The notes under the pieces: generated by a model
Told to the model about the DNA's origin: nothing
Database searches by the model: none
What the model saw: only the letters and a program-made list of their open reading frames with translations
Source of the DNA: Escherichia coli
GTDB lineage: Bacteria; Pseudomonadota; Gammaproteobacteria; Enterobacterales; Enterobacteriaceae
Reading direction: 5' to 3' (one strand)
DNA length: 64,000 nt
NCBI RefSeq assembly: GCF_050920415.1
Contig: NZ_CP169309.1
Program-made: the position numbers and the translations under genes
In this document: in pieces, positions 7,872 to 35,604 of the stretch
Layout of the letters: each line of letters starts with the position of its first letter
Numbering within the stretch: position 1 is the first letter of the stretch

Positions 7872-8447
7872 GTGCAACGTGAAGATGTACTGGGAGAAGC
7901 CCTGAAATTATTAGAATTACAAGGGATTGCCAACACCACGCTGGAGATGGTTGCTGAACGTGTGGATTATCCACTGGACGAGCTACGCCGCTTCTGGCCA
8001 GACAAAGAGGCAATCCTCTATGATGCGCTGCGCTATCTTAGCCAACAGATAGATGTCTGGCGTCGTCAGCTGATGCTGGACGAAACGCAAACCGCCGAAC
8101 AAAAGCTGCTGGCACGTTATCAGGCGTTATCGGAGTGCGTTAAAAACAACCGCTATCCGGGCTGTCTGTTTATCGCTGCCTGTACGTTTTATCCCGATCC
8201 TGGCCACCCTATTCATCAACTGGCCGATCAGCAAAAAAGCGCGGCCTACGATTTCACCCACGAACTGTTAACCACGCTGGAAGTTGACGATCCGGCGATG
8301 GTAGCAAAGCAGATGGAACTGGTGCTGGAAGGCTGTTTAAGCCGAATGCTGGTGAATCGTAGCCACGCGGATGTCGACACCGCACATCGGCTGGCAGAAG
8401 ATATCCTGCGCTTCGCTCGCTGCCGCCAGGGTGGCGCACTGACCTGA
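7872..8447 (+). CDS. yjdC: TetR-family transcriptional regulator YjdC
   Basis: N-terminal HTH region ([22 protein letters not shown]); start is either GTG 7872 or ATG 7848; conserved position. Confidence 0.75.
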
Positions 8448-8553
8448 CAGAAACACAGAAAAGAAGCGATTTGCCGCAATCTTAAGCAGTTGAATCGCTT
8501 TTACTGAAATTAGGTTGACGAGATGTGCAGATTACGGTTTAATGCGCCCCGTT

Positions 8554-8629
8554 GCCCGGATAGCTCAGTCGGTAGAGCAGGGGATTGAAAATCCCCGTGT
8601 CCTTGGTTCGATTCCGAGTCCGGGCACCA
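8554..8629 (+). tRNA. pheU: tRNA-Phe (anticodon GAA)
   Basis: Exact match to E. coli tRNA-Phe: GCCCGGATAGCTCAGTCGGTAGAGCAGGGGATTGAAAATCCCCGTGTCCTTGGTTCGATTCCGAGTCCGGGCACCA. Confidence 0.97.
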
Positions 8630-8638
8630 AATTCATAT

Positions 8639-8667
8639 AAACGGACCTCCACGGAGGTCCGTTTTTC
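8639..8667 (+). terminator. Rho-independent terminator downstream of pheU
   Basis: Perfect hairpin aaacggacctcc / ggaggtccgttt followed by TTTTT. Confidence 0.7.
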
Positions 8668-8670
8668 GTT

Positions 8671-8946
8671 TCAGGACGCCATGTGATTTAAGCGTTCTGC
8701 CTTCAAATCATTTCTAACAATCTCAACCAAATTTTCCCACATCGCCAGCATGTTGCGGGTATACCCCAGCTCTGGGAAATTTATCCCTAAGCTATGAATG
8801 ACTCTCACGAAATGTCGTGCGGCTGCGTGATGCAGTTGAAAATCAAATGATGTCATCAAGAGCTTAACGGTATCGTTGCCGATGACATATATAAAGCACA
8901 ACCTCGGGCAGAACGCCGACTGATGAGATTTTCTGAATGAGAACAA
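8671..8946 (-). pseudogene. Remnant of a P4-family phage integrase (C-terminal fragment) next to the tRNA-Phe 3' end
   Basis: 91-codon ORF whose C-terminus (...RNMLAMWENLVEIVRNDLKAE) resembles the conserved C-terminal tail of P4-like tyrosine integrases; no full-length integrase frame present; location at a tRNA 3' end. Confidence 0.5.
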
Positions 8947-9260
8947 AGAGAAATGTATCAGTCCGCTTGCTCATGCAAAGACTAACAATCCATAAAAATA
9001 GTAAGCGCGCCGGGCAATTTCCCATGGATTATTTTCTGAACATTTTTCTTTGGCAAAGATGATGAATTTTGATGATAAGGAATATTACTTCTGGTTCTCA
9101 GTAAAATCCTTTCGTAATACTATGTAATCAAGAAGTTTATGGCTGGTAAAAATAACGTCTTGCATTCACCAATTATATGTAAATAAAACCATCTATAGAT
9201 GGTAAAAATAGGTTGTGGCAATTATCATTGAACCATTCCCTTTTCGAATGAGTTTCTATT

Positions 9261-10799
9261 ATGCAACAACCTGTAGTTCGCGTTGGCGAATGGCTTGTTA
9301 CTCCGTCCATAAACCAAATTAGTCGCAATGGGCGTCAACTTACCCTTGAGCCGAGATTAATCGATCTTCTGGTTTTCTTTGCTCAACACAGTGGCGAAGT
9401 ACTTAGCAGGGATGAACTTATCGATAATGTCTGGAAGAGAAGTATTGTCACCAATCACGTTGTGACGCAGAGTATCTCAGAACTACGTAAGTCATTAAAA
9501 GATAATGATGAAGATAGTCCTGTCTATATCGCTACTGTACCAAAGCGCGGCTATAAATTAATGGTGCCGGTTATCTGGTACAGCGAAGAAGAGGGAGAGG
9601 AAATAATGCTATCTTCGCCTCCCCCTATACCAGAGGCGGTTCCTGACACAGATTCTCCCTCCCAAAGTCTTAACATTCAAAGCACCGCAACACCACCTGA
9701 ACAATCCCCAGTTAAAAGCAAACGATTCACTACCTTTTGGGTATGGTTTTTTTTCCTGTTGTCGTTAGGTATCTGTGTAGCACTGGTAGCGTTTTCAAGT
9801 CTTGATACACGTCTTCCTATGAGCAAATCGCGTATTTTGCTCAATCCACGCGATATTGACATTAATATGGTAAATAAAAGTTGTAACAGCTGGAGTTCCC
9901 CGTATCAGCTCTCTTACGCGATAGGCGTGGGTGATTTGGTGGCGACATCACTTAACACCTTCTCCACCTTTATGGTGCATGACAAAATCAACTACAACAT
10001 TGATGAACCGAGCAGTTCCGGTAAAACATTATCTATTGCGTTTGTTAATCAGCGCCAATACCGTGCTCAACAATGCTTTATGTCGGTAAAATTGGTAGAC
10101 AATGCAGATGGTTCAACCATGCTGGATAAACGTTATGTCATCACTAACGGTAATCAGCTGGCGATTCAAAATGATTTACTGGAGAGTTTATCAAAAGCGT
10201 TAAACCAACCGTGGCCACAACGAATGCAGGAGATGCTCCAGCAAATTTTGCCGCATCGTGGTGCGTTATTAACTAATTTTTATCAGGCTCATGATTATTT
10301 ACTGCATGGCGATGATAAATCATTGAACCGTGCCAGTGAATTACTAGGTGAGATTGTTCAATCATCCCCCGAATTTACCTACGCGAGAGCAGAAAAAGCA
10401 TTAGTTGATATCGTGCGCCATTCTCAACATCCTTTAGATGAAAAACAATTAGCAGCACTGAATACAGAAATAGATAACATTGTTACACTGCCGGAATTGA
10501 ACAACCTGTCCATTATATATCAAATAAAAGCGGTCAGTGCTCTGGTAAAAGGTAAAACAGATGAGTCTTACCAGGCGATAAATACTGGCATTGATCTTGA
10601 AATGTCCTGGCTAAATTATGTGTTGCTTGGCAAGGTTTATGAAATGAAGGGGATGAACCGGGAAGCAGCTGATGCATATCTCACCGCCTTTAATTTACGC
10701 CCAGGGGCAAACACCCTTTACTGGATTGAAAATGGTATATTCCAGACTTCTGTTCCTTATGTTGTACCTTATCTCGACAAATTTCTCGCCTCAGAATAA
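9261..10799 (+). CDS. cadC: ToxR-like membrane-integrated pH-responsive activator CadC (512 aa)
   Basis: MQQPVVRVGEWLVTPSINQISRNGRQLTLEPRLIDLLVFF... winged-helix N-terminus, single TM segment, periplasmic sensor domain. Confidence 0.95.
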   Translation: MQQPVVRVGEWLVTPSINQISRNGRQLTLEPRLIDLLVFFAQHSGEVLSRDELIDNVWKRSIVTNHVVTQSISELRKSLKDNDEDSPVYIATVPKRGYKLMVPVIWYSEEEGEEIMLSSPPPIPEAVPDTDSPSQSLNIQSTATPPEQSPVKSKRFTTFWVWFFFLLSLGICVALVAFSSLDTRLPMSKSRILLNPRDIDINMVNKSCNSWSSPYQLSYAIGVGDLVATSLNTFSTFMVHDKINYNIDEPSSSGKTLSIAFVNQRQYRAQQCFMSVKLVDNADGSTMLDKRYVITNGNQLAIQNDLLESLSKALNQPWPQRMQEMLQQILPHRGALLTNFYQAHDYLLHGDDKSLNRASELLGEIVQSSPEFTYARAEKALVDIVRHSQHPLDEKQLAALNTEIDNIVTLPELNNLSIIYQIKAVSALVKGKTDESYQAINTGIDLEMSWLNYVLLGKVYEMKGMNREAADAYLTAFNLRPGANTLYWIENGIFQTSVPYVVPYLDKFLASE

Positions 10800-10867
10800 G
10801 TGACTCCCGGGTTGACTCATGCTCGGGAATATTTGTTGTTGATTTTTTGTATGTTATTGTTGATATA

Positions 10868-10902
10868 ATATGTTGCGGCAATTTATTTGCCGCATATTTT
10901 TT
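10868..10902 (+). terminator. Rho-independent terminator after cadC
   Basis: Hairpin atatgttgcggcaa / ttgccgcatat followed by a T-run. Confidence 0.55.
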
Positions 10903-10919
10903 ATAACAGAAATTTAACC

Positions 10920-11130
10920 GAAAAACATCTCTTAATTCATTGTAAATATTGAATGTTTATCTTTTCATGATATCAACTTGCGATCCTGATGTGTTAATAA
11001 AAAACCTCAAGTTCTCACTTACAGAAACTTTTGTGTTATTTCACCTAATCTTTAGGATTAATCTTTTTTTTTGAGTAATCTTGTCGCCAGTTTGGTCTGG
11101 TCAGTAAATAGTTACGCATCATGACCCGGA
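10920..11130 (+). promoter_or_regulatory. Pcad promoter / CadC-binding region upstream of cadBA
   Basis: AT-rich non-coding region upstream of cadB; established position of CadC sites for the cadBA operon; exact site boundaries not resolved from sequence. Confidence 0.45.
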
Positions 11131-11163
11131 CTCCAAATTCAAAAATGAAATTAGGAGAAGAGC

Positions 11164-12498
11164 ATGAGTTCTGCCAAGAAGATCGGGCTATTTGCCTGTA
11201 CCGGTGTTGTTGCCGGTAATATGATGGGGAGCGGCATTGCATTATTGCCTGCGAACCTTGCAAGTATCGGTGGTATTGCTATCTGGGGTTGGATTATCTC
11301 TATTATTGGTGCAATGTCGTTGGCTTATGTATATGCCCGACTGGCAACAAAAAACCCGCAACAAGGTGGCCCAATTGCTTATGCCGGAGAAATTTCTCCT
11401 GCATTTGGTTTTCAGACAGGTGTTCTTTATTACCATGCTAACTGGATTGGTAACCTGGCGATTGGTATTACCGCTGTATCTTATCTTTCCACCTTCTTCC
11501 CTGTATTAAATGATCCTGTTCCGGCGGGTATCGCTTGTATTGCTATCGTCTGGGTATTTACCTTTGTAAATATGCTCGGCGGTACCTGGGTAAGCCGTTT
11601 AACCACTATTGGTCTGGTGCTGGTTCTTATTCCTGTAGTTATGACTGCTATTGTTGGCTGGCATTGGTTTGATGCTGCAACTTATGCTGCTAACTGGAAT
11701 ACCGCAGGTACTACTGATGGTCATGCGATCATTAAAAGTATTCTGCTCTGCCTGTGGGCCTTCGTGGGTGTTGAATCCGCAGCGGTAAGTACTGGTATGG
11801 TTAAAAACCCGAAACGTACCGTTCCGCTGGCAACCATGCTGGGTACTGGTTTAGCAGGTATTGTTTACATCGCTGCGACTCAGGTGCTTTCCGGTATGTA
11901 TCCGTCTTCTGTAATGGCAGGCTCCGGTGCTCCGTTTGCAATCAGTGCTTCTACTATCCTGGGTAACTGGGCTGCGCCGATGGTTTCTGCATTCACCGCT
12001 TTTGCGTGCCTGACTTCTCTGGGTTCCTGGATGATGCTGGTAGGTCAGGCAGGTGTGCGTGCCGCTAACGACGGTAACTTCCCGAAAGTTTATGGTGAAG
12101 TCGACAGCAACGGTATTCCGAAAAAAGGTCTGCTGCTGGCTGCAGTGAAAATGACTGCCCTGATGATCCTCATCACTCTGATGAACTCTGCCGGTGGTAA
12201 AGCATCTGACCTGTTCGGTGAACTGACCGGTATCGCAGTACTGCTGACTATGCTGCCGTACTTCTACTCTTGCGTTGACCTGATTCGTTTTGAAGGCGTT
12301 AACATCCGCAACTTTGTCAGCCTGATCTGCTCTGTACTGGGTTGCGTGTTCTGCTTCATCGCGCTGATGGGCGCAAGCTCCTTCGAGCTGGCAGGTACCT
12401 TCATCGTCAGCCTGATTATCCTGATGTTCTACGCTCGCAAAATGCACGAGCGCCAGAGCCACTCAATGGATAACCACACAGCGTCTAACGCACATTAA
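11164..12498 (+). CDS. cadB: Lysine:cadaverine antiporter CadB (444 aa)
   Basis: APC-family membrane ORF MSSAKKIGLFACTGVVAGNMMGSGIALLPANLA...; immediately upstream of cadA. Confidence 0.95.
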   Translation: MSSAKKIGLFACTGVVAGNMMGSGIALLPANLASIGGIAIWGWIISIIGAMSLAYVYARLATKNPQQGGPIAYAGEISPAFGFQTGVLYYHANWIGNLAIGITAVSYLSTFFPVLNDPVPAGIACIAIVWVFTFVNMLGGTWVSRLTTIGLVLVLIPVVMTAIVGWHWFDAATYAANWNTAGTTDGHAIIKSILLCLWAFVGVESAAVSTGMVKNPKRTVPLATMLGTGLAGIVYIAATQVLSGMYPSSVMAGSGAPFAISASTILGNWAAPMVSAFTAFACLTSLGSWMMLVGQAGVRAANDGNFPKVYGEVDSNGIPKKGLLLAAVKMTALMILITLMNSAGGKASDLFGELTGIAVLLTMLPYFYSCVDLIRFEGVNIRNFVSLICSVLGCVFCFIALMGASSFELAGTFIVSLIILMFYARKMHERQSHSMDNHTASNAH

Positions 12499-12577
12499 TT
12501 AAAAGTATTTTCCGAGGCTCCTCCTTTCATTTTGTCCCATGTGTTGGGAGGGGCCTTTTTTACCTGGAGATATGACT

Positions 12578-14725
12578 ATGAACGTTATTGCAATATTGAA
12601 TCACATGGGGGTTTATTTTAAAGAAGAACCCATCCGTGAACTTCATCGCGCGCTTGAACGTCTGAACTTCCAGATTGTTTACCCGAATGACCGTGACGAC
12701 TTATTAAAACTGATCGAAAACAATGCGCGTCTGTGCGGTGTTATTTTTGACTGGGATAAATATAATCTCGAGCTGTGCGAAGAAATTAGCAAAATGAACG
12801 AGAACCTGCCGTTGTACGCGTTCGCTAATACGTATTCCACTCTCGATGTCAGCCTGAATGACCTGCGTTTACAGATTAGCTTCTTTGAATATGCGCTGGG
12901 TGCTGCTGATGATATTGCTAACAAGATCAAGCAGACCACTGACGAATATATCAACACTATTCTGCCTCCGCTGACCAAAGCACTGTTTAAATATGTTCGT
13001 GAAGGTAAATATACTTTCTGTACTCCTGGTCACATGGGCGGTACTGCATTCCAGAAAAGCCCGGTAGGTAGCCTGTTCTATGATTTCTTTGGTCCGAACA
13101 CCATGAAATCTGATATTTCCATTTCAGTATCTGAATTGGGTTCTCTGCTGGATCACAGCGGTCCGCACAAAGAAGCAGAACAGTATATCGCTCGCGTATT
13201 TAACGCAGACCGCAGCTACATGGTGACCAACGGTACTTCCACTGCGAACAAAATTGTTGGTATGTACTCTGCTCCGGCAGGCAGCACCATTCTGATTGAC
13301 CGTAACTGCCACAAATCGCTGACCCACCTGATGATGATGAGCGATGTTACGCCAATCTATTTCCGCCCGACCCGTAACGCTTACGGTATTCTTGGTGGTA
13401 TCCCACAGAGTGAATTCCAGCACGCTACCATTGCTAAGCGCGTAAAAGAAACACCAAACGCGACCTGGCCGGTACATGCCGTAATTACTAACTCTACCTA
13501 TGATGGCCTGCTGTACAACACCGACTTCATCAAGAAAACACTGGATGTAAAATCCATCCACTTTGACTCCGCGTGGGTGCCTTACACCAACTTCTCACCG
13601 ATTTACGAAGGTAAATGCGGTATGAGCGGTGGCCGTGTAGAAGGGAAAGTGATTTACGAAACCCAGTCTACTCACAAACTGCTGGCGGCGTTCTCTCAGG
13701 CTTCCATGATCCACGTTAAAGGTGATGTAAACGAAGAAACCTTTAACGAAGCCTACATGATGCACACCACCACTTCTCCGCACTACGGTATCGTGGCGTC
13801 CACTGAAACCGCTGCGGCGATGATGAAAGGTAATGCTGGTAAGCGTCTGATCAACGGTTCCATTGAACGTGCGATCAAGTTCCGTAAAGAGATCAAACGC
13901 CTGAGAACGGAATCTGATGGCTGGTTCTTTGATGTATGGCAGCCGGATCATATCGATACCACTGAATGCTGGCCGCTGCGTTCTGACAGCTCCTGGCACG
14001 GCTTCAAGAACATCGACAATGAGCACATGTATCTTGACCCGATCAAAGTCACCCTGCTGACCCCGGGGATGGAAAAAGACGGCACCATGAGCGACTTTGG
14101 TATTCCGGCCAGCATCGTGGCGAAATACCTCGACGAACATGGCATCGTTGTTGAGAAAACCGGCCCGTATAACCTGCTGTTCCTGTTCAGCATCGGTATT
14201 GATAAGACCAAAGCATTGAGCCTGCTGCGTGCTCTGACTGACTTCAAACGTGCGTTCGACCTGAACCTGCGTGTGAAAAACATGCTGCCGTCTCTGTATC
14301 GTGAAGATCCTGAATTCTATGAAGATATGCGTATTCAGGAACTGGCTCAGAATATCCACAAACTGATTGTTCACCACAATCTGCCGGATCTGATGTATCG
14401 CGCATTTGAAGTGCTGCCGACAATGGTAATGACTCCGTATGCTGCGTTCCAGAAAGAGCTGCACGGTATGACCGAAGAAGTTTACCTCGACGAAATGGTA
14501 GGTCGTATTAACGCCAATATGATCCTTCCGTATCCGCCGGGAGTTCCTCTGGTAATGCCGGGTGAAATGATCACCGAAGAAAGCCGTCCGGTGCTGGAGT
14601 TCCTGCAGATGCTGTGTGAAATCGGCGCTCACTATCCGGGCTTTGAAACCGATATTCACGGTGCATACCGTCAGGCTGATGGTCGCTATACCGTTAAGGT
14701 ATTGAAAGAAGAAAGCAAAAAATAA
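12578..14725 (+). CDS. cadA: Inducible lysine decarboxylase CadA (715 aa)
   Basis: MNVIAILNHMGVYFKEEPIRELHRALERLNFQIVYPNDRDD...; Orn/Lys/Arg decarboxylase fold with STHKLL PLP-lysine motif; start at ATG 12578 within ORF 12539-14725. Confidence 0.96.
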   Translation: MNVIAILNHMGVYFKEEPIRELHRALERLNFQIVYPNDRDDLLKLIENNARLCGVIFDWDKYNLELCEEISKMNENLPLYAFANTYSTLDVSLNDLRLQISFFEYALGAADDIANKIKQTTDEYINTILPPLTKALFKYVREGKYTFCTPGHMGGTAFQKSPVGSLFYDFFGPNTMKSDISISVSELGSLLDHSGPHKEAEQYIARVFNADRSYMVTNGTSTANKIVGMYSAPAGSTILIDRNCHKSLTHLMMMSDVTPIYFRPTRNAYGILGGIPQSEFQHATIAKRVKETPNATWPVHAVITNSTYDGLLYNTDFIKKTLDVKSIHFDSAWVPYTNFSPIYEGKCGMSGGRVEGKVIYETQSTHKLLAAFSQASMIHVKGDVNEETFNEAYMMHTTTSPHYGIVASTETAAAMMKGNAGKRLINGSIERAIKFRKEIKRLRTESDGWFFDVWQPDHIDTTECWPLRSDSSWHGFKNIDNEHMYLDPIKVTLLTPGMEKDGTMSDFGIPASIVAKYLDEHGIVVEKTGPYNLLFLFSIGIDKTKALSLLRALTDFKRAFDLNLRVKNMLPSLYREDPEFYEDMRIQELAQNIHKLIVHHNLPDLMYRAFEVLPTMVMTPYAAFQKELHGMTEEVYLDEMVGRINANMILPYPPGVPLVMPGEMITEESRPVLEFLQMLCEIGAHYPGFETDIHGAYRQADGRYTVKVLKEESKK

Positions 14726-14737
14726 TTAGCTCGTACA

Positions 14738-14767
14738 AGGGAAGTGGCTTGCCACTTCCCTTTTTTG
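14738..14767 (+). terminator. Rho-independent terminator after cadA
   Basis: Hairpin gggaagtggc / gccacttccc followed by TTTTTT. Confidence 0.65.
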
Positions 14768-14783
14768 CTCATAAGGAGAACAC

Positions 14784-16241
14784 ATGAAAACACCCTCACA
14801 GCCGCGCGCGATATACTATATCGTGGCGATCCAAATCTGGGAGTACTTCAGTTTTTACGGCATGCGTGCCTTACTCATTCTCTACCTCACCCATCAGCTT
14901 GGTTTTGATGATAACCATGCCATCAGTCTGTTCAGCGCATATGCTTCTCTGGTTTACGTTACCCCTATTCTCGGCGGCTGGCTTGCCGACCGCCTGCTCG
15001 GCAACCGCACTGCAGTGATTGCCGGCGCGCTGTTAATGACCCTTGGCCATGTGGTGCTGGGCATTGATACAAATTCAACCTTTAGCCTGTATCTGGCGCT
15101 GGCAATCATTATTTGTGGCTACGGTTTATTCAAATCGAACATCAGCTGTTTGCTTGGCGAGCTCTATGCCCCTGACGATCATCGACGTGATGGCGGTTTT
15201 TCGCTGCTGTATGCTGCGGGCAATATCGGTTCTATCGCAGCCCCCATCGCCTGCGGTCTGGCTGCTCAGTGGTATGGATGGCATGTTGGCTTTGCCCTTG
15301 CGGGTGGTGGCATGTTTATCGGTTTGTTGATTTTCTTAAGCGGTCATCGTCATTTCCAGTCAACGCGTAGTATGGATAAAAAAGCGCTCACTCGCGTGAA
15401 ATTTGCCTTACCGGTATGGAGCTGGTTAGTGGTGATGCTCTGTTTAGCCCCAGTATTTTTTACCCTACTGCTGGAGAACGACTGGTCCGGATATTTGCTG
15501 GCGATCGTTTGCCTTATTGCTGCACAAATCATTGCCCGCATGATGATCAAATACCCCGAACACCGTCGTGCTCTTTGGCAAATAGTATTGTTGATGCTTG
15601 TCGGAACGTTGTTCTGGGTACTGGCACAACAGGGCGGCAGCACCATCAGCTTGTTTATCGATCGCTTTGTGAATCGTCAGGCATTCAATATTGAAGTGCC
15701 GACTGCGCTATTCCAGTCAGTGAATGCGATTGCAGTGATGCTCGCTGGGGTTGTTCTGGCCTGGCTGGCGTCGCCAGAAAGCCGCGGCAATTCAGCATTG
15801 CGCGTCTGGCTGAAGTTTGCCTTTGGCTTACTGCTGATGGCTTGTGGCTTTATGTTGCTGGCATTTGATGCCCGACATGCAGCGGCTGGCGGTCAAGCGT
15901 CAATGGGCGTGATGATATCCGGGCTGGCGCTAATGGGCTTTGCCGAACTCTTTATTGACCCGGTGGCGATTGCGCAAATCACGCGTCTGAAAATGTCTGG
16001 CGTATTAACCGGTATTTATATGCTGGCAACAGGCGCGGTCGCCAACTGGCTGGCAGGCGTCGTGGCACAGCAGACGACAGAGTCGCAAATTAGCGGAATG
16101 GCAATTGCAGCTTACCAGCGATTCTTTTCTCAGATGGGAGAGTGGACGTTGGCTTGTGTCGCGATCATCGTGGTATTGGCCTTTGCTACCCGTTTTCTGT
16201 TTAGCACGCCGACGAATATGATACAGGAGAGCAACGATTAA
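14784..16241 (+). CDS. dtpC: Proton-dependent dipeptide/tripeptide permease DtpC (POT family, 485 aa)
   Basis: POT/PTR2 family motifs ([19 protein letters not shown]...); conserved position between cadA and lysU. Confidence 0.9.
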
Positions 16242-16477
16242 CTGTCGTAAAAACAATTGGTTATGAATAAATTAACTTTCAGTTTATCACACTAGCAAAT
16301 CGAGATTAATAAGTCATTTAAACCATTTTTATGGTTATTTATTAGTGATATCAACTTGAGGTAAGCGTTAGTTTCGATAAGATAAACTGAGTTATTAATA
16401 GTCGAGGCAGATAATACAGTGTACCGATCTGTCTCTTTATCTACGCTAAATTGAAAGCTGGATTTAGAGGAACCAAA

Positions 16478-17995
16478 ATGTCTGAACGAGAAACACGGGG
16501 AGCCAATGAGGCTATTGATTTTAACGATGAACTGAGAAATCGCCGCGAAAAACTGGCAGCACTGCGTCAGCAAGGTGTGGCGTTTCCTAATGATTTTCGC
16601 CGCGACCATACCTCTGACCAGTTGCACGAAGAGTTTGATGCGAAGGATAACCAGGAACTGGAATCCTTAAACATTGAAGTCTCGGTTGCTGGCCGAATGA
16701 TGACCCGTCGTATCATGGGGAAAGCCTCCTTTGTAACGTTGCAGGATGTCGGTGGCCGTATTCAACTGTACGTTGCACGAGATAGCCTGCCAGAAGGTGT
16801 TTATAACGATCAGTTTAAAAAATGGGACCTCGGCGACATTATCGGTGCCCGCGGTACGCTGTTTAAGACGCAAACGGGTGAACTTTCCATTCACTGTACT
16901 GAGCTGCGCCTGCTGACTAAAGCACTACGTCCTTTACCAGATAAATTCCATGGTCTGCAGGATCAGGAAGTCCGTTATCGTCAACGTTATCTGGACCTCA
17001 TCGCTAACGATAAATCCCGTCAAACGTTTGTTGTCCGTTCAAAAATTCTGGCCGCTATCCGCCAGTTCATGGTCGCGCGCGGCTTTATGGAAGTAGAAAC
17101 CCCGATGATGCAGGTAATTCCAGGTGGGGCATCTGCTCGCCCGTTTATTACCCATCATAATGCTCTGGATTTGGATATGTACCTGCGTATTGCGCCGGAG
17201 CTATATCTGAAACGTCTGGTTGTAGGTGGTTTTGAACGGGTATTCGAAATCAACCGTAACTTCCGTAATGAAGGTATTTCTGTTCGTCATAATCCTGAGT
17301 TCACGATGATGGAACTCTACATGGCGTATGCGGATTACCACGATTTGATTGAACTGACGGAATCACTGTTCCGCACTCTGGCACAAGAGGTACTGGGTAC
17401 CACTAAAGTCACTTATGGCGAGCATGTGTTTGATTTCGGCAAACCGTTTGAAAAACTCACCATGCGCGAAGCAATCAAAAAATATCGTCCAGAAACCGAT
17501 ATGGCGGACCTGGATAATTTTGATGCTGCTAAAGCATTAGCTGAATCTATCGGAATTACGGTAGAGAAAAGCTGGGGGCTGGGACGCATTGTCACGGAGA
17601 TCTTTGATGAAGTGGCAGAAGCACATCTGATTCAGCCAACCTTTATCACGGAATATCCGGCAGAAGTGTCACCGCTGGCGCGCCGTAATGATGTTAACCC
17701 GGAAATCACCGACCGTTTTGAATTCTTCATCGGTGGTCGTGAAATCGGTAATGGTTTTAGCGAATTAAACGACGCAGAAGATCAGGCGGAACGTTTCCAG
17801 GAACAGGTTAACGCTAAAGCTGCAGGTGACGACGAAGCCATGTTCTATGACGAAGATTACGTGACTGCGCTGGAATATGGTCTGCCGCCAACCGCGGGTC
17901 TGGGTATTGGTATCGACCGAATGATTATGCTGTTTACTAACAGTCATACTATTCGCGACGTTATTCTCTTCCCGGCGATGCGTCCACAGAAATAA
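16478..17995 (+). CDS. lysU: Lysyl-tRNA synthetase, heat-inducible isoform LysU (505 aa)
   Basis: Class II aaRS with N-terminal OB-fold anticodon-binding domain; start at ATG 16478 inside ORF 16451-17995; assigned as lysU (not lysS) by gene neighbourhood. Confidence 0.93.
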
Positions 17996-18113: not shown

Positions 18114-18287
18114 CTAAAAGAGAGAAAAAAGTAATGCCACAGGCAGGCTCATTGGCCAGGTTATTCCGACCAGAAATGCACTAAGTAAACGAATATGTGT
18201 TTTCTCATGTGAGATAAACCAGATAATGACAAAGGATATGTTCACACCAATCACATAAAAAATTAATATTTTAGAGAATAGTGCCAT
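18114..18287 (-). CDS. ghoT: Type V toxin GhoT, small membrane-lytic peptide (57 aa)
   Basis: Reverse-strand ATG at 18285-18287 opens a 57-codon frame MALFSKILIFYVIGVNISFVIIWFISHEKTHIRLLSAFLVGITWPMSLPVALLFSLF ending at TAG (18114-18116); below the 60-aa cut-off of the ORF track; directly downstream of ghoS. Confidence 0.85.
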   Translation of the reverse strand: MALFSKILIFYVIGVNISFVIIWFISHEKTHIRLLSAFLVGITWPMSLPVALLFSLF

Positions 18288-18314: not shown

Positions 18315-18611
18315 CTACTTGTAAAACTGACGGAAATAGTCATCAACGGTCATAATGTTGAGGTCAAAATCAATATCCGGTAAGTCTAAGCATTTGAGCC
18401 TGATTAAATCTTCGATTTCACTTGCGGCTAACGATGTCGTTATTGCGAAGGAATTTTCATTCAATTGTCGTGGTATCCCATATTCATCAGCCACGATAGA
18501 GGAGAAATTCATATCATACATCAATGATCTTAACCTTAAGAACACTGAGGAATAAGATGATGGATAATCAAAAGAAACAACATAAGTATTGAACTTGTTT
18601 TTACCTTCCAT
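18315..18611 (-). CDS. ghoS: Type V antitoxin GhoS, sequence-specific endoribonuclease (98 aa)
   Basis: ORF MEGKNKFNTYVVSFDYPSSYSSVFLRLRSLMYDMNFSSIVADEYGIP... matches GhoS (formerly YjdK); upstream of ghoT on the same strand. Confidence 0.85.
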   Translation of the reverse strand: MEGKNKFNTYVVSFDYPSSYSSVFLRLRSLMYDMNFSSIVADEYGIPRQLNENSFAITTSLAASEIEDLIRLKCLDLPDIDFDLNIMTVDDYFRQFYK

Positions 18612-18840
18612 AATATGACTCCTATCAATATTAAAACGATCTGGGGACGCACAACTTATTAACCCCGATCGATGATTCTCATATAGGAGATATTCTTTTT
18701 TTTTTGCTCAGTAAAGGGGATGACTTGGGACAAGAAAACGCTCTCTCTGACCATTCTTTGTGCATCCCCCTACCCTTCAGATTCTCTCCTGCATCACACC
18801 GCGGAGAGCATGAAAAATATCGTGACTCTGTACTCTCCCA

Positions 18841-19113
18841 TCAACTGCGAATATCATCATACTCCCGCGTTTTATCAAATTCGTGTTTCGCAAATGGACA
18901 TAATGGGATAATTTTTCGTTTTTCCCGACGCATTTTTTCCACGACTTTCGCAACCAGCTGTTTACCAATCCCCTGCCCTTTCAGGCTTTCATCGACATCG
19001 GTATGTTCGATAATCGCTAAATTCTTGCCGGTCGGCACAAAGACAATTTCAGCAATTTGCTTGCCCTGTTCGTCATTAATGTAAAATTTATTGTGGCCTT
19101 CGCGTATTTCCAT
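18841..19113 (-). CDS. yjdJ: Small GNAT-like acetyltransferase-fold protein YjdJ (90 aa)
   Basis: ORF with Q/R-x-x-G-x-G/A acetyl-CoA-binding-like motif ([18 protein letters not shown]); conserved neighbourhood. Confidence 0.75.
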
Positions 19114-19124
19114 TTTACCCTCGC

Positions 19125-19355
19125 TTATTTATGACGGTATTTCAGCGCGCCGCTCGGGCACGTATCAATCACTTTAACCACAGTGGCAACGTCGACTTCA
19201 TCCGGCATGATCCACGGCTTTCGTTTGAGATTAAATAACTTGCCGTTGCCACGTACGCAATTGCCAGAATGCTGACATATCGCAGTGTTGAAATAGACAT
19301 CGATCTTTTCGCCGGTATAACAGCGATAACCCCCGTCCAGTAGCGCCTGATCCAT
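19125..19355 (-). CDS. yjdI: Small cysteine-rich protein YjdI (76 aa)
   Basis: ORF with multiple Cys (CYTG...CQHSGNC...CPSG) suggesting a metal-binding fold; 11 bp upstream of yjdJ on the same strand. Confidence 0.7.
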
Positions 19356-25638: not shown

Positions 25639-26289
25639 ATGACCCGCACACTCAAGCCGTTAATTCTTAACACCGGCGCACTGGCGCTAACGTTAATCCT
25701 GATTTATACCGGCATTTCGGCCAATGACAAACTCACCTGGCTGATGGAAGTGACACCGGTGATTATTGTCGTGCCGCTACTGCTTGCCACCGCTAAACGT
25801 TATCCGTTAACGCCGCTGCTCTATACGCTCATTTTCTTTCACGCCATCATCCTGATGGTCGGCGGGCAATACACCTACGCGAAAGTCCCCGTTGGTTTTG
25901 AGGTGCAGGAATGGCTGGGGTTGAGCCGTAATCCGTATGACAAGCTGGGGCATTTTTTCCAGGGGCTGGTGCCTGCACTGGTGGCGCGAGAAATTCTCGT
26001 TCGCGGGATGTACGTGCGCGGACGTAAAATGGTGGCGTTTCTGGTCTGCTGCGTGGCGCTGGCGATAAGCGCGATGTATGAATTAATCGAGTGGTGGGCA
26101 GCGCTGGCAATGGGTCAGGGAGCGGATGATTTTCTCGGTACCCAGGGCGACCAATGGGACACACAATCCGATATGTTCTGCGCGCTGCTTGGTGCATTAA
26201 CTACGGTGATATTCCTTGCTCGCTTTCATTGCCGCCAGCTACGGCGCTATGGCTTAATCACCAGAGCGCCGGAAGCGATTACCTCTTAA
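25639..26289 (+). CDS. yjdF: Inner-membrane protein YjdF (DUF2238-like)
   Basis: Multi-TM ORF in the conserved position next to fumB; stop TAA at 26287-26289 overlaps the melA stop. Confidence 0.7.
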   Translation: MTRTLKPLILNTGALALTLILIYTGISANDKLTWLMEVTPVIIVVPLLLATAKRYPLTPLLYTLIFFHAIILMVGGQYTYAKVPVGFEVQEWLGLSRNPYDKLGHFFQGLVPALVAREILVRGMYVRGRKMVAFLVCCVALAISAMYELIEWWAALAMGQGADDFLGTQGDQWDTQSDMFCALLGALTTVIFLARFHCRQLRRYGLITRAPEAITS

Positions 26290-27641
26290 CGGTGTAACCA
26301 GCCTGGCAGCCAGTCGCCGTGGGCGGCAATCAGGTCGTCAATAAGAGCATAGATTTCATCAATGCCCAGCACGGCAGCGGTATGTGGGTCCATCATCGCG
26401 GCATGGTAAACACGGTCGCGATTTTCTGTGAGAATGGCTTCCGTCAGCAGCGTCTGTACGTTGATATTGGTTTGCATCAGGGCGGCCAGATGCGAAGGTA
26501 GCGTACCGACTTTGGTCGGCTGAATGCCATTAGCATCAACTAAACAGGCCACTTCCACGCAACATCCTTGTGGCAGGTTATCAATCAAACCATCGTTACG
26601 GACGTTGCCATAAATCACACTCGGCTCGCCAGTCCAGATAGCGTTCATGATTGTGCTGGCATATTCCCGTGACGGTTTAATATCAATCCGGGAGGCGTTC
26701 TTATACTCCTCCAGCTCTTTATGCCAGTTTGCCAATTGTTCGACGCAGCGTTTCGGGTACTCATCCAGCGGCACTTTATAACGCTCAATCAAATCCTCAC
26801 GACCAGGCTTAATAAACCACGGTGTGTATTCAGCAAAATGTTCTGACGATTCCGTGACGAAGTAGCCCAGCTTTTTGAACATTTCATAACGCACAATATT
26901 CTGGCAGCGAGTATTGCCATGAATATTCGGCTTCGGTGCCTGCCCTGCGTCATACGCTGCCAGCAGTTCTGGGTAGAGATTCACGTAACTGCCGTCGGCG
27001 GTTTTGCGCTCCAGTTCCAGGTAAAACGCCATATGGTTGATACCCGCGCAACGGTAACGCAACGTAGCTGGGTCGATATTGAGATCACGCGCCAGCTCTT
27101 CCGCCGTTCCCTGCACCGAATGGCACAGCCCTACCTGTTTGATATGCGGATAGCGGGCATACATCGCCCAGGTATTCATCGCCATTGGGTTAACATAGTT
27201 GAGCATAGTGGCATCGGGGCAGACTTCCGTCATGTCCTCGCAAATTTGCCACAGGTGCGGAATGGTACGTAGCGCGCGCATAATACCGCCCGGCCCCAAC
27301 GTATCGGCAATGGTTTGTTCCAGACCGTGGCGCTTACAGACCTCAAAATCAGTCACCGTGCAAGGTTCATAACCGCCAATCTGAAATGCCACTACGACAA
27401 AATCGGCATCCTGTAAGGCTTCTTTCTGTTGGGTGTGGCAGGTGATTTTGCCACTGGCCCCCGCTGAATCCATCAGCTTGCGCACCACAATGTGCGACTC
27501 TTCCAGGCGGATGGGATCAATGTCCATCAGGGCAATATGCGCCGTTTTTAGCGCCTCGCGATGGAACACATCACCAAGAATATTTTTAACGAAAATCGTC
27601 GAACCAGCGCCGATAAATGTAATTTTAGGTGCAGACATCAT
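26286..27641 (-). CDS. melA: Alpha-galactosidase MelA (GH4 family, 451 aa)
   Basis: MMSAPKITFIGAGSTIFVKNILGDV... N-terminal Rossmann GAGS motif typical of NAD/Mn-dependent family 4 glycosidases; divergent from melR. Confidence 0.93.
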   Translation of the reverse strand: MMSAPKITFIGAGSTIFVKNILGDVFHREALKTAHIALMDIDPIRLEESHIVVRKLMDSAGASGKITCHTQQKEALQDADFVVVAFQIGGYEPCTVTDFEVCKRHGLEQTIADTLGPGGIMRALRTIPHLWQICEDMTEVCPDATMLNYVNPMAMNTWAMYARYPHIKQVGLCHSVQGTAEELARDLNIDPATLRYRCAGINHMAFYLELERKTADGSYVNLYPELLAAYDAGQAPKPNIHGNTRCQNIVRYEMFKKLGYFVTESSEHFAEYTPWFIKPGREDLIERYKVPLDEYPKRCVEQLANWHKELEEYKNASRIDIKPSREYASTIMNAIWTGEPSVIYGNVRNDGLIDNLPQGCCVEVACLVDANGIQPTKVGTLPSHLAALMQTNINVQTLLTEAILTENRDRVYHAAMMDPHTAAVLGIDEIYALIDDLIAAHGDWLPGWLHR

Positions 27642-27923: not shown

Positions 27924-28832
27924 ATGAATACAGATACTTTTATGTGTAGCAGCGACGAAAAACAGACCCGCAGTCCGCTGTCGCTGTATTCGGAATACCA
28001 GCGGATGGAGATTGAGTTTCGCGCACCGCATATCATGCCCACCAGCCACTGGCATGGTCAGGTCGAAGTGAATGTGCCTTTCGATGGCGATGTGGAATAC
28101 CTGATCAACAATGAAAAAGTGAGTATCAATCAGGGACATATCACGCTGTTCTGGGCCTGTACACCGCACCAACTAACAGATACCGGAACCTGTCAGAGCA
28201 TGGCGATTTTTAATCTGCCGATGCATCTGTTTCTCTCCTGGCCGCTGGATAAAGACCTGATTAACCACGTCACTCACGGCATGGTGATTAAATCACTGGC
28301 GACACAGCAACTTAGCCCGTTTGAAGTGCGCCGCTGGCAGCAGGAATTGAACAGTCCGAACGAGCAAATTCGCCAGCTCGCCATTGATGAAATTGGCCTG
28401 ATGCTCAAGCGATTTAGCCTCTCTGGCTGGGAACCGATTCTGGTCAATAAAACCTCGCGCACACACAAAAACAGCGTCTCGCGCCATGCGCAATTTTATG
28501 TCAGCCAGATGCTGGGCTTTATTGCCGAAAACTATGATCAGGCGCTGACCATCAACGATGTGGCTGAGCACGTCAAACTTAACGCCAACTATGCAATGGG
28601 GATATTCCAGCGGGTCATGCAATTGACGATGAAACAGTACATTACCGCGATGCGCATCAACCACGTTCGCGCGTTACTGAGCGATACCGATAAAAGTATT
28701 CTCGATATTGCCCTGACGGCAGGCTTTCGTTCGAGTAGCCGTTTTTACAGCACGTTCGGCAAATATGTCGGCATGTCACCGCAACAATACCGCAAACTTA
28801 GCCAACAGCGCCGCCAGACGTTTCCCGGCTAA
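27924..28832 (+). CDS. melR: AraC-family melibiose operon activator MelR (302 aa)
   Basis: C-terminal AraC-type double HTH (…DIALTAGFRSSSRFYSTFGKYVGMSPQQYR); divergent from melA. Confidence 0.9.
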   Translation: MNTDTFMCSSDEKQTRSPLSLYSEYQRMEIEFRAPHIMPTSHWHGQVEVNVPFDGDVEYLINNEKVSINQGHITLFWACTPHQLTDTGTCQSMAIFNLPMHLFLSWPLDKDLINHVTHGMVIKSLATQQLSPFEVRRWQQELNSPNEQIRQLAIDEIGLMLKRFSLSGWEPILVNKTSRTHKNSVSRHAQFYVSQMLGFIAENYDQALTINDVAEHVKLNANYAMGIFQRVMQLTMKQYITAMRINHVRALLSDTDKSILDIALTAGFRSSSRFYSTFGKYVGMSPQQYRKLSQQRRQTFPG

Positions 28833-33881: not shown

Positions 33882-33920
33882 AAGCCAACCTTAAGAACTT
33901 AAGGTTGGCTTAATTTTGCT
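33882..33920 (+). terminator. Rho-independent terminator after adiC
   Basis: Hairpin aagccaacctt / aaggttggctt followed by aaTTTTg. Confidence 0.5.
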
Positions 33921-33960
33921 TTGCGAGCATATGCGCACTTTGTTCGATGGAAACACCGTG

Positions 33961-35604
33961 ATGTTGAAGCGCCTACTAAAAAGACCCTCTTTGAATTTAC
34001 TCGCCTGGCTATTGCTGGCCGCTTTTTATATCGCTATCTGCCTGAATATTGCCTTTTTTAAACAGGTATTGCAGGCGTTGCCGCTGGACTCGCTGCATAA
34101 CGTACTTGTTTTCTTGTCGATGCCGGTCGTCGCTTTCAGCGTGATTAATATTGTCCTGACACTAAGCTCTTTCTTATGGCTTAATCGACCGCTGGCCTGC
34201 CTGTTTATTCTGGTTGGCGCGGCTGCACAATATTTCATAATGACTTACGGCATCGTCATCGACCGCTCGATGATTGCCAATATTATTGATACCACCCCAG
34301 CAGAAAGTTATGCGCTGATGACACCGCAAATGTTATTAACGCTGGGACTCAGCGGCGTACTTGCTGCGCTAATTGCCTGCTGGATTAAAATCAAACCTGC
34401 CACCTCGCATCTGCGCAGTGTTCTTTTCCGTGGTGCCAATATTCTGGTTTCTGTACTGCTGATTTTGCTGGTCGCCGCACTGTTTTATAAAGACTACGCC
34501 TCGTTGTTCCGCAACAACAAAGAGCTGGTGAAGTCCTTAAGCCCCTCTAACAGCATTGTTGCCAGCTGGTCATGGTACTCCCATCAGCGACTAGCAAATC
34601 TGCCACTGGTGCGAATTGGTGAAGACGCGCACCGCAACCCGTTAATGCAGAACGAGAAACGTAAAAATTTGACCATCCTGATTGTCGGCGAAACCTCGCG
34701 GGCGGAGAACTTCTCCCTCAACGGCTACCCGCGTGAAACGAACCCGCGGCTGGCGAAAGATAACGTGGTCTATTTCCCCAATACTGCGTCTTGCGGCACG
34801 GCAACGGCAGTTTCAGTACCGTGCATGTTCTCGGATATGCCGCGTGAGCATTACAAAGAAGAACTGGCACAGCACCAGGAAGGCGTGCTGGATATCATTC
34901 AGCGAGCGGGCATCAACGTGCTGTGGAATGACAACGATGGTGGCTGCAAAGGTGCCTGCGATCGCGTGCCTCACCAGAACGTCACTGCGCTGAACCTGCC
35001 TGGTCAGTGTATCAACGGCGAATGTTATGACGAAGTGCTTTTCCACGGGCTGGAAGAGTACATCACTAACCTGCAAGGTGATGGCGTAATTGTCTTACAC
35101 ACCATCGGCAGTCACGGCCCGACCTATTACAATCGCTATCCGCCACAGTTCAGGAAATTTACCCCTACCTGCGACACCAACGAGATCCAGACCTGTACCC
35201 AAGAGCAACTGGTAAACACTTACGACAATACGCTGGTCTACGTCGACTATATTGTTGATAAAGCAATTAATCTACTGAAAGAACATCAGGATAAATTTAC
35301 CACCAGCCTGGTTTATCTTTCTGACCACGGTGAATCGTTAGGTGAAAATGGCATCTATCTGCACGGTTTGCCTTATGCCATCGCCCCGGATAGCCAAAAA
35401 CAGGTGCCGATGCTGCTGTGGCTGTCTGAGGATTATCAAAAACGGTATCAGGTTGACCAAAGTTGCCTACAGAAACAGGCGCAAACGCAACACTATTCAC
35501 AAGACAATTTATTCTCCACGCTATTGGGATTAACTGGCGTTGAGACGAAGTATTACCAGGCTGCGGATGATATTCTGCAAACTTGCAGGAGAGTGAGTGA
35601 ATGA
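33961..35604 (+). CDS. eptA: Lipid A phosphoethanolamine transferase EptA (547 aa)
   Basis: N-terminal multi-TM domain plus periplasmic sulfatase-like domain; start at ATG 33961 within ORF 33916-35604; overlaps basR start by 4 bp. Confidence 0.9.

Follow-up and report, generated by a model that had tools for sequence, protein, structure and literature searches.

The 64-kb window of Escherichia coli DNA analysed here carries dsbD, dicD (yjdC), pheU, cadC, cadB, cadA, dtpC and lysU, arranged as usual in E. coli. The pheU gene for tRNA-Phe(GAA) lies on the plus strand at 8554-8629. It is the single tRNA called by ARAGORN in the window, matches Rfam family RF00005 with 68.3 bits and is annotated as tRNA-Phe or pheU in the matching E. 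coli records; an Rfam scan at E ≤ 1 returned this tRNA as its sole match and no other Rfam family. On the same strand, a terminator scan identified the intrinsic terminator of pheU, a hairpin with an 11-bp stem at 8639-8664 followed by a T run that extends to about 8669. The first 37 nt 3' of pheU are 90-97% identical in several other genera, and the tRNA gene and its terminator are functional. Both elements had been recognized in a preliminary description of this DNA, which also put the start of cadC about 600 bp away; by our measurement cadC (9261-10799) starts 632 nt past the tRNA gene. In that description the gap between the two genes was regarded as an unoccupied insertion hot spot, in which the remnant of a P4-family integrase gene marks an old integration event.

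Our results agree with the view that the site is vacant. The stretch from the tRNA gene to cadC contains neither an intact integrase gene nor island DNA, and the hallmarks of an occupied site, namely an intact integrase gene together with foreign DNA between pheU and the terminator or the integrase relic described below, are lacking in the window. Positions 8400-9400 are contiguous, just as in the window, in 3775 out of 5426 complete E. coli genomes (about 70%, megablast), and it follows that pheU is empty here. In the examples listed for the remaining genomes, the match begins inside or just past the 3' end of the tRNA gene because an island occupies pheU.

Both pheU and pheV are major hot spots for genomic islands with P4-type integrases, and direct repeats of 19-23 bp have been reported for pheV islands (PMC7686366, PMC11537424, PMC7545054); islands at this sister site possess a 19-bp imperfect repeat at their 3' end (PMC11537424). 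A comparison with an island-bearing strain, which the preliminary description had called for, shows how the relic relates to such elements. In MDR_56, an integrase gene (394 aa) lies 176 nt past pheU; next come an island of about 79 kb, a 19-nt repeat, the terminator, the relic and cadC. The island ends with ATTCCGAGTCCGGGCACCA, a 19-nt copy of the pheU 3' end, after which the sequence is identical to that of the window from 8630 onward. Given this order, modern islands do not include the relic, which is found in the chromosome beyond their attR. The final 19 nt of pheU (8611-8629, plus strand), which the MDR_56 comparison reveals as the core that is duplicated at the far end of pheU islands, serve as attB for the present-day islands at pheU and pheV. 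An incoming island lands between pheU and its terminator and displaces the terminator, the relic and cadC by tens of kb. Like the relic, the modern pheU and pheV islands (PAI-CFT073-pheU, LEE, the papGII islands and the island of MDR_56) have the 3' end of tRNA-Phe as their attachment site. The tRNA gene is directly followed by their integrase gene, and their far end is marked by a direct repeat of 19 nt. In contrast to the relic, they are absent from the window, and where they are present they reside between pheU and the relic; moreover, their integrase belongs to a different P4-type subfamily that fails to detect the relic.

A second copy of the pheU 3' end, as would be expected of an attR further downstream, had been proposed as a check. 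It did not turn up in credible form in the window. A 23-mer search allowing up to three mismatches found none in the 64 kb, and a 16-mer search with mismatches yielded no credible match. With a 19-mer and up to five mismatches, a single match with five mismatches was obtained at 34897, within an open reading frame (33916-35604) that we take from its position to be eptA; one such match is the chance expectation. Flanking attL/attR direct repeats, the signature of a tRNA-integrated island, are thus not seen in 64 kb, and we conclude from the missing second copy that the attR of the ancient element is gone.

The DNA between the terminator and cadC is nevertheless not featureless. We assign 8667-9004 on the plus strand, with a probability of about 0.93, to a decayed gene for a P4/IntB-type tyrosine integrase that is the ortholog of yjdQ in E. 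coli K-12. When K-12 IntB and the Leclercia integrase were compared with the window by tblastn, matches with combined E values around 1e-6 were obtained on the plus strand; for the K-12 allele the value was 4e-10. The plus-strand matches to IntB fall into three frames, and the pieces follow each other in integrase order and end at the position of the intB stop codon. RDAVENQM (8826-8849) is the first of them, followed by CHQELNGIVADDIYKAQPRAERRLM (8851-8925), which tblastn aligns with residues 342-366 of IntB, and by DFLNENKEKCISPLAHAKTNNP (8927-8992), aligned with residues 372-393. In a blastn comparison of the DNA, 8927-9004 and the final 78 nt of intB, with its stop codon, share 78% identity (E = 2e-14). 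The best tblastn score amounted to 33.1 bits and was reached by none of 300 shuffled sequences (mean 18.1, sd 1.8, maximum 26.2). The old scar of a P4-family integrase at an empty pheU, as originally suspected, is therefore borne out by significant matches of the IntB type as well as by existing annotations, to which we return below.

IntB and the Leclercia enzyme represent the best-matching integrase subfamily at both the protein and the DNA level. Neither IntA nor the integrase of the MDR_56 pheU island gave a tblastn match on either strand. Since among the probes tried only the IntB subfamily detects the relic, the latter belongs to this subfamily. IntB shares 68% identity with the pheU integrase of Leclercia and only 42% with that of modern E. 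coli pheU islands. The repaired plus-strand peptides did not match any entry in Pfam, NCBIfam or PHROGs, including Phage_integrase (PF00589); for PF00589 and NCBIfam we ascribe this to the fragment being short, degraded and situated mostly past the C-terminal end of the profile. An additional alignment of IntB residues 306-341 with 8730-8849 (E = 0.24) was discarded as false, as alignment with other species identifies this stretch as leader and start codons and leaves RDAVENQM as its only real part. The relic had no DNA match in a phage collection. Matches to E. coli entries in a plasmid collection were records of 0.09-4.9 Mb with the same pheU-cadC stretch, of which those above 4.7 Mb are clearly chromosomes; the same collection contained a 69% match to an integrase 3' end on large Salmonella plasmids.

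Three parts of the former integrase locus can be distinguished. The leader (8667-8793, plus strand), that is the attL-side arm between the tRNA gene and the start of int, is collinear with the leader of the Leclercia pheU-int locus (L057) and with that between leuX and intB in K-12. It is followed by the relic of integrase codons 1 to about 10 (8794-8825, plus strand), the ATG of which lies at 8794, 165 nt past pheU and in the same orientation. In the window allele this segment is worn by small deletions; it was identified solely via alignment of orthologous alleles and is unrecognisable from the window alone. The corresponding codons read MALTDAKCRA in E. whittamii, MTLTDAKCRAA in Escherichia sp. 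E1V33 and IALTDVKCRAA in K-12, while residues 1-11 of the Leclercia integrase are MALTDAKIRAA. The third part, the ortholog of yjdQ as found by tblastn, blastn and existing annotations (8826-9004, plus strand), comprises the last 60 or so integrase codons, distributed over three frames by two frameshifts and interrupted by several stops. A premature TAA occurs at 8993, and the TAG at 9002-9004 aligns with the stop codon of intB. Integrase genes of the P4/IntB type are always located just downstream of the targeted tRNA gene and in the same orientation. This layout, consisting of tRNA gene, terminator, leader and int on the tRNA strand, is shared by the window, the leuX-intB locus of K-12 and the pheU-int locus of Leclercia sp. 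29361 (L057:8501-9763), where an intact gene for an IntB-like integrase of 420 aa resides 195 nt downstream of pheU. With 396 codons in intB and 420 in the Leclercia gene, these two are complete or almost complete; the window has lost the codons between about 11 and about 330 and retains some 70 codons in pieces.

An intact integrase reading frame with an N-terminal DNA-binding domain and a catalytic domain bearing the R-K-H-R-H-Y residues is thus absent from the relic, and the position of the catalytic tyrosine is occupied by aspartate in the window allele (ADDIYK versus AAYIHK). The relic cannot encode a recombinase and is a pseudogene. The integrase gene would have decayed without leaving its attL position: the arm-binding domain and the greater part of the catalytic domain were lost in an internal deletion of some 950 bp, and frameshifts, stops and lineage-specific small deletions would have followed. 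Today the relic most likely does nothing, a statement that is by its nature an argument from absence. A copy of part of the leader was encountered in E. coli 19KM2326N, where a segment 81% identical to window positions 8660-8772, the start of the leader, is situated inside an island between a DUF4942 gene and LEE genes (L010:2501-2612); its position suggests an internal attR-type junction of tandem islands.

The preliminary description had placed the integrase fragment on the opposite strand, in a reading frame of 91 codons whose C-terminus was thought to resemble the tail of P4-family integrases. A reading frame of this length does exist at 8671-8946 on the minus strand. Its resemblance to integrases, however, did not withstand scrutiny. 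Searches of Pfam, NCBIfam and PHROGs yielded no match even at permissive thresholds of E ≤ 10 or 1, and the best blastp match in a database of four P4-type integrases had an E value of 2.2 (residues 64-86 against IntA 383-411, RNMLAMWENLVE versus RPMMQWWADLVK); this match is the tail resemblance noted in the preliminary description. A similar reverse-strand match was obtained for E. whittamii (E = 0.095). These look-alikes are the points in favour of a reverse-strand integrase, but with four proteins in the database both values are at chance level. Furthermore, the DNA that would code for the supposed tail (8671-8760) is the leader of the plus-strand integrase gene and is collinear with intact loci, the reading frame is interrupted in the K-12 allele, and reading frames of at least 91 codons arose in 24 of 300 dinucleotide shuffles of 8630-9260 (8%). 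The integrase tblastn over the gap between pheU and cadC, as originally suggested, gave the IntB match on the plus strand and no significant one on the reverse strand. As every significant integrase match is on the plus strand, we regard the reverse-strand version as refuted, with hardly any chance left to it; the 91-codon frame is an antisense accident, neither a gene nor derived from an integrase. Similarity to tyrosine recombinases, without which the scar was to be given up, is lacking for this frame and is present at the locus. Hence, the empty site and the scar stand, and the strand and the reading frame that were put forward as evidence for them do not.

The relic is already known. In E. 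coli K-12 MG1655, the interval from pheU to cadC contains pseudogene yjdQ (b4654) in the orientation of pheU; it shares position, strand and integrase C-terminus with the relic in the window and can be aligned with it from end to end. In both alleles the codons for LQWWA of IntB are missing and the frame shifts at this point. In most E. coli genomes PGAP labels about 160 bp as 'tyrosine-type recombinase/integrase; frameshifted; incomplete; missing N-terminus', and no pseudogene is annotated by PGAP in the genomes that carry the allele of the window. The yjdQ and PGAP annotations cover the last 160 bp or so alone and leave the relics of leader and start codons unannotated. A literature search did not find a paper containing the name 'yjdQ'.

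The allele present in the window is rare. Over 8667-8925 it shares only 77-83% identity with yjdQ and with the form present in about 5250 complete E. coli genomes, a divergence of about 20%, and identity in the flanks is 96-100%. It occurs in 18 out of 5426 genomes and is farther from the K-12 allele than are the alleles of E. whittamii and Escherichia sp. E1V33. It retains 16 nt (8866-8881) that have been lost in K-12 and, conversely, has its own small deletions in the relic of the start codons. Probably, it is a short segment acquired by recombination from an Escherichia lineage not yet sampled; a source was not found among the alleles compared. Such a rare and deeply diverged allele could serve as a mark of introgression from another lineage of the genus.

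To place the relic in a wider context, pheU regions from 80 Enterobacteriaceae species, anchored on DicD, were compared. In this set, which is without E. fergusonii and without complete E. albertii genomes (the E. albertii contig starts inside cadC), the pheU-relic-cadC arrangement was encountered in Escherichia only, namely in E. whittamii, Escherichia sp. E1V33 and a divergent 'E. coli' (L013). The leader is orthologous in these three and in E. albertii, and in all four the relic exhibits lineage-specific deletions. E. albertii has kept the leader and more of the N-terminus (integrase residues 19-41, E = 7e-6), and in L013 a single frame runs across the junction into the C-terminal part (MVLTDNKMSCSGLWSRDPVKRQM). 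The non-Escherichia pheU loci examined, whose sequence downstream of the tRNA gene covers between less than 1 kb and about 6 kb, do not contain the relic there. Being common to several Escherichia species, the relic must be old. The founding integration would have taken place before E. coli separated from E. whittamii, E. albertii and their relatives, and pheU would have been in use as a hot spot before the Escherichia species diverged. On the other side of the tRNA gene, 106 nt separate dicD from pheU in the window, compared with 1.6-2.3 kb in E. whittamii, Escherichia sp. E1V33 and numerous further species, many loci of Citrobacter, Klebsiella and Enterobacter among them; the larger distance therefore points to an insertion upstream of pheU in those species.

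The integrase tail is followed by an AT-rich spacer with a GC content of 33% (9005-9194). It is conserved among Escherichia species, is confined to the pheU-cadC arrangement of this genus and lies outside the block of genes that is common to E. fergusonii, Raoultella and Pseudescherichia. Within 9005-9260, only 9195-9260 travels with cadC in other genera. A mapped transcription start of cadC was not found in the literature, and the spacer may be either island DNA or part of the cadC promoter region. The AT-rich DNA at 8947-9260, for which both the remnant and the cadC promoter had earlier been suggested, can thus be divided: 8947-9004 is integrase tail, and 9005-9260 is DNA upstream of cadC. 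One could imagine that relic DNA was kept because it has been co-opted, for example in an H-NS-bound cadC promoter region or as a small transcript. In fact, tail and spacer together (8926-9260) are AT-rich and 96-99% conserved within E. coli. Between species, however, their identity (85-95%) is about the same as that of the leader (81-90%), and over 8667-8925 E. coli tolerates two coexisting alleles that are about 20% apart. In addition, no Rfam family matches, and a simple scan of 8450-9300 did not reveal a promoter-like site on the plus strand. We therefore consider co-option improbable.

A different question is what the vanished element carried and how cadC came to lie next to its integrase. 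From cadC to lysU, the genes cadC-cadB-cadA-dtpC-lysU form a block of 8.8 kb (9195-17995, plus strand) whose boundaries were deduced from blastn alignments and gene contexts. In E. fergusonii the block is 90.2% identical over 8850 nt (blastn). Its edges, at 9195 and 17995 of the window, are the same in E. fergusonii, Raoultella and Pseudescherichia vulneris, and its chromosomal neighbours differ: the block is found between pga-dgcT and a tRNA-Ser gene in E. fergusonii, between acyltransferase genes and an amidohydrolase gene in Raoultella, and near glk-ypdAB-alaC in P. vulneris. In E. fergusonii, the region between lysU and the gene for tRNA-Ser(GGA) (L091:16848-17297) consists of tandem units of 179 nt that are 97-99% identical to each other, each of which ends in the 19-nt 3' end of tRNA-Ser(GGA). 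The GC content of the block is 46%, compared with 33-41% for its flanks and 51% for the window. Absence from the corresponding site in relatives and a deviating base composition are properties expected of island cargo, and the block may possess them, but neither mobility genes nor an attR were found. In the non-Escherichia pheU loci, with their reach of less than 1 kb to about 6 kb, it was not seen downstream of the tRNA gene.

The order of historical events at pheU has to be inferred from such comparisons, and two histories deserve to be weighed. An ancient element of the IntB type may have brought or relocated cadC-cadB-cadA-dtpC-lysU, perhaps together with ghoST, to pheU in an Escherichia ancestor, where the block became fixed and int and attR were lost to decay; the cad block would be the domesticated cargo of an old island and the yjdQ relic its integrase gene. 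This speculative idea is in line with a number of observations. The integrase gene decayed at the attL position and kept the position of its own stop codon, and the block is found on the cargo side of it, being reached after 190 nt of DNA with 33% GC. The block has the same edges and different neighbours in E. fergusonii, Raoultella and P. vulneris, in E. fergusonii it borders on the 3' side of a tRNA-Ser gene, from which tandem repeats of the tRNA 3' end separate it, and its adjacency to pheU is seen in Escherichia only. The GC content of block and flanks relative to that of the window and the toxin-antitoxin pair ghoT/ghoS after lysU would also fit. On the other hand, no attR-like repeat is present in the 55 kb downstream, the block is devoid of other mobile-element genes, no integrase gene adjoins it in the other genera, cadC is absent from real plasmids and the relic is without a match in phage DNA. 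Moreover, with 90% identity the blocks of E. coli and E. fergusonii seem to have diverged by ordinary vertical descent, which speaks for relocation within the genus rather than import. A literature search did not find a paper that links the cad block to a pheU island. Taken together, we consider it possible but doubtful that the block arrived in this way.

Alternatively, the island may have entered between pheU and a cadC gene that was already its neighbour, and a deletion ending just past the int stop codon may have removed the cargo, attR and the displaced original terminator, so that the int relic alone remained. Deletion has clearly been active at this locus, as is evident from the internal loss of 950 bp from int, the lineage-specific small deletions and the loss of the whole cad region in strain E69, and a missing attR is just what would be expected. 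The endpoint of such a deletion, however, must have spared both the entire 3' end of int and the cadC promoter. Furthermore, this course of events leaves unexplained why the block resides at different sites in other genera and why the adjacency of pheU and cadC is specific for Escherichia. Nevertheless, we rate insertion next to a resident cadC followed by deletion above an arrival of the cad block as cargo and hold it to be somewhat better than an even bet, the remaining probability being reserved for histories we have not thought of.

The finding as such is ordinary, with one modestly interesting evolutionary hypothesis attached to it. Its main value lies in correct annotation, as the relic belongs on the pheU strand and the reverse-strand reading frame is not a gene. 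For every modern pheU island, moreover, the relic indicates on which side of attR the chromosome resumes, which can aid in drawing island boundaries. Should the cad block indeed be former cargo, a textbook 'core' acid-resistance operon would turn out to be an island that has become a permanent part of the chromosome, and the deletions of the cad region in Shigella and EIEC would remove a former island. Such deletions are known from Shigella and EIEC, and a similar case was met in 'E. coli strain E69' (CP089930.1; L015), which has neither the relic nor cadC downstream of pheU. Homology to the window resumes about 2.7 kb past the tRNA gene, at window positions 18836-19280 (yjdJ/yjdI), which looks like a deletion of the entire block.

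Further observations concern the neighbourhood beyond the block. Directly after lysU, ghoT (18114-18287) and ghoS (18315-18611) are located on the minus strand, followed on the same strand by genes for a small acetyltransferase of the GNAT type (18841-19113) and for a Fer4_19 protein (19125-19355); these genes lie in a stretch with a GC content of 41%. Further downstream, a yjdF homologue (25639-26289, plus strand) overlaps the 3' end of melA, the gene for alpha-galactosidase (26286-27641, minus strand), by 4 nt, and melR is located at 27924-28832. In K-12, the melibiose permease gene melB lies between melA and yjdF. There is no space for it between melA and the yjdF homologue here, and melB appears to be missing from the window (25639-27641).
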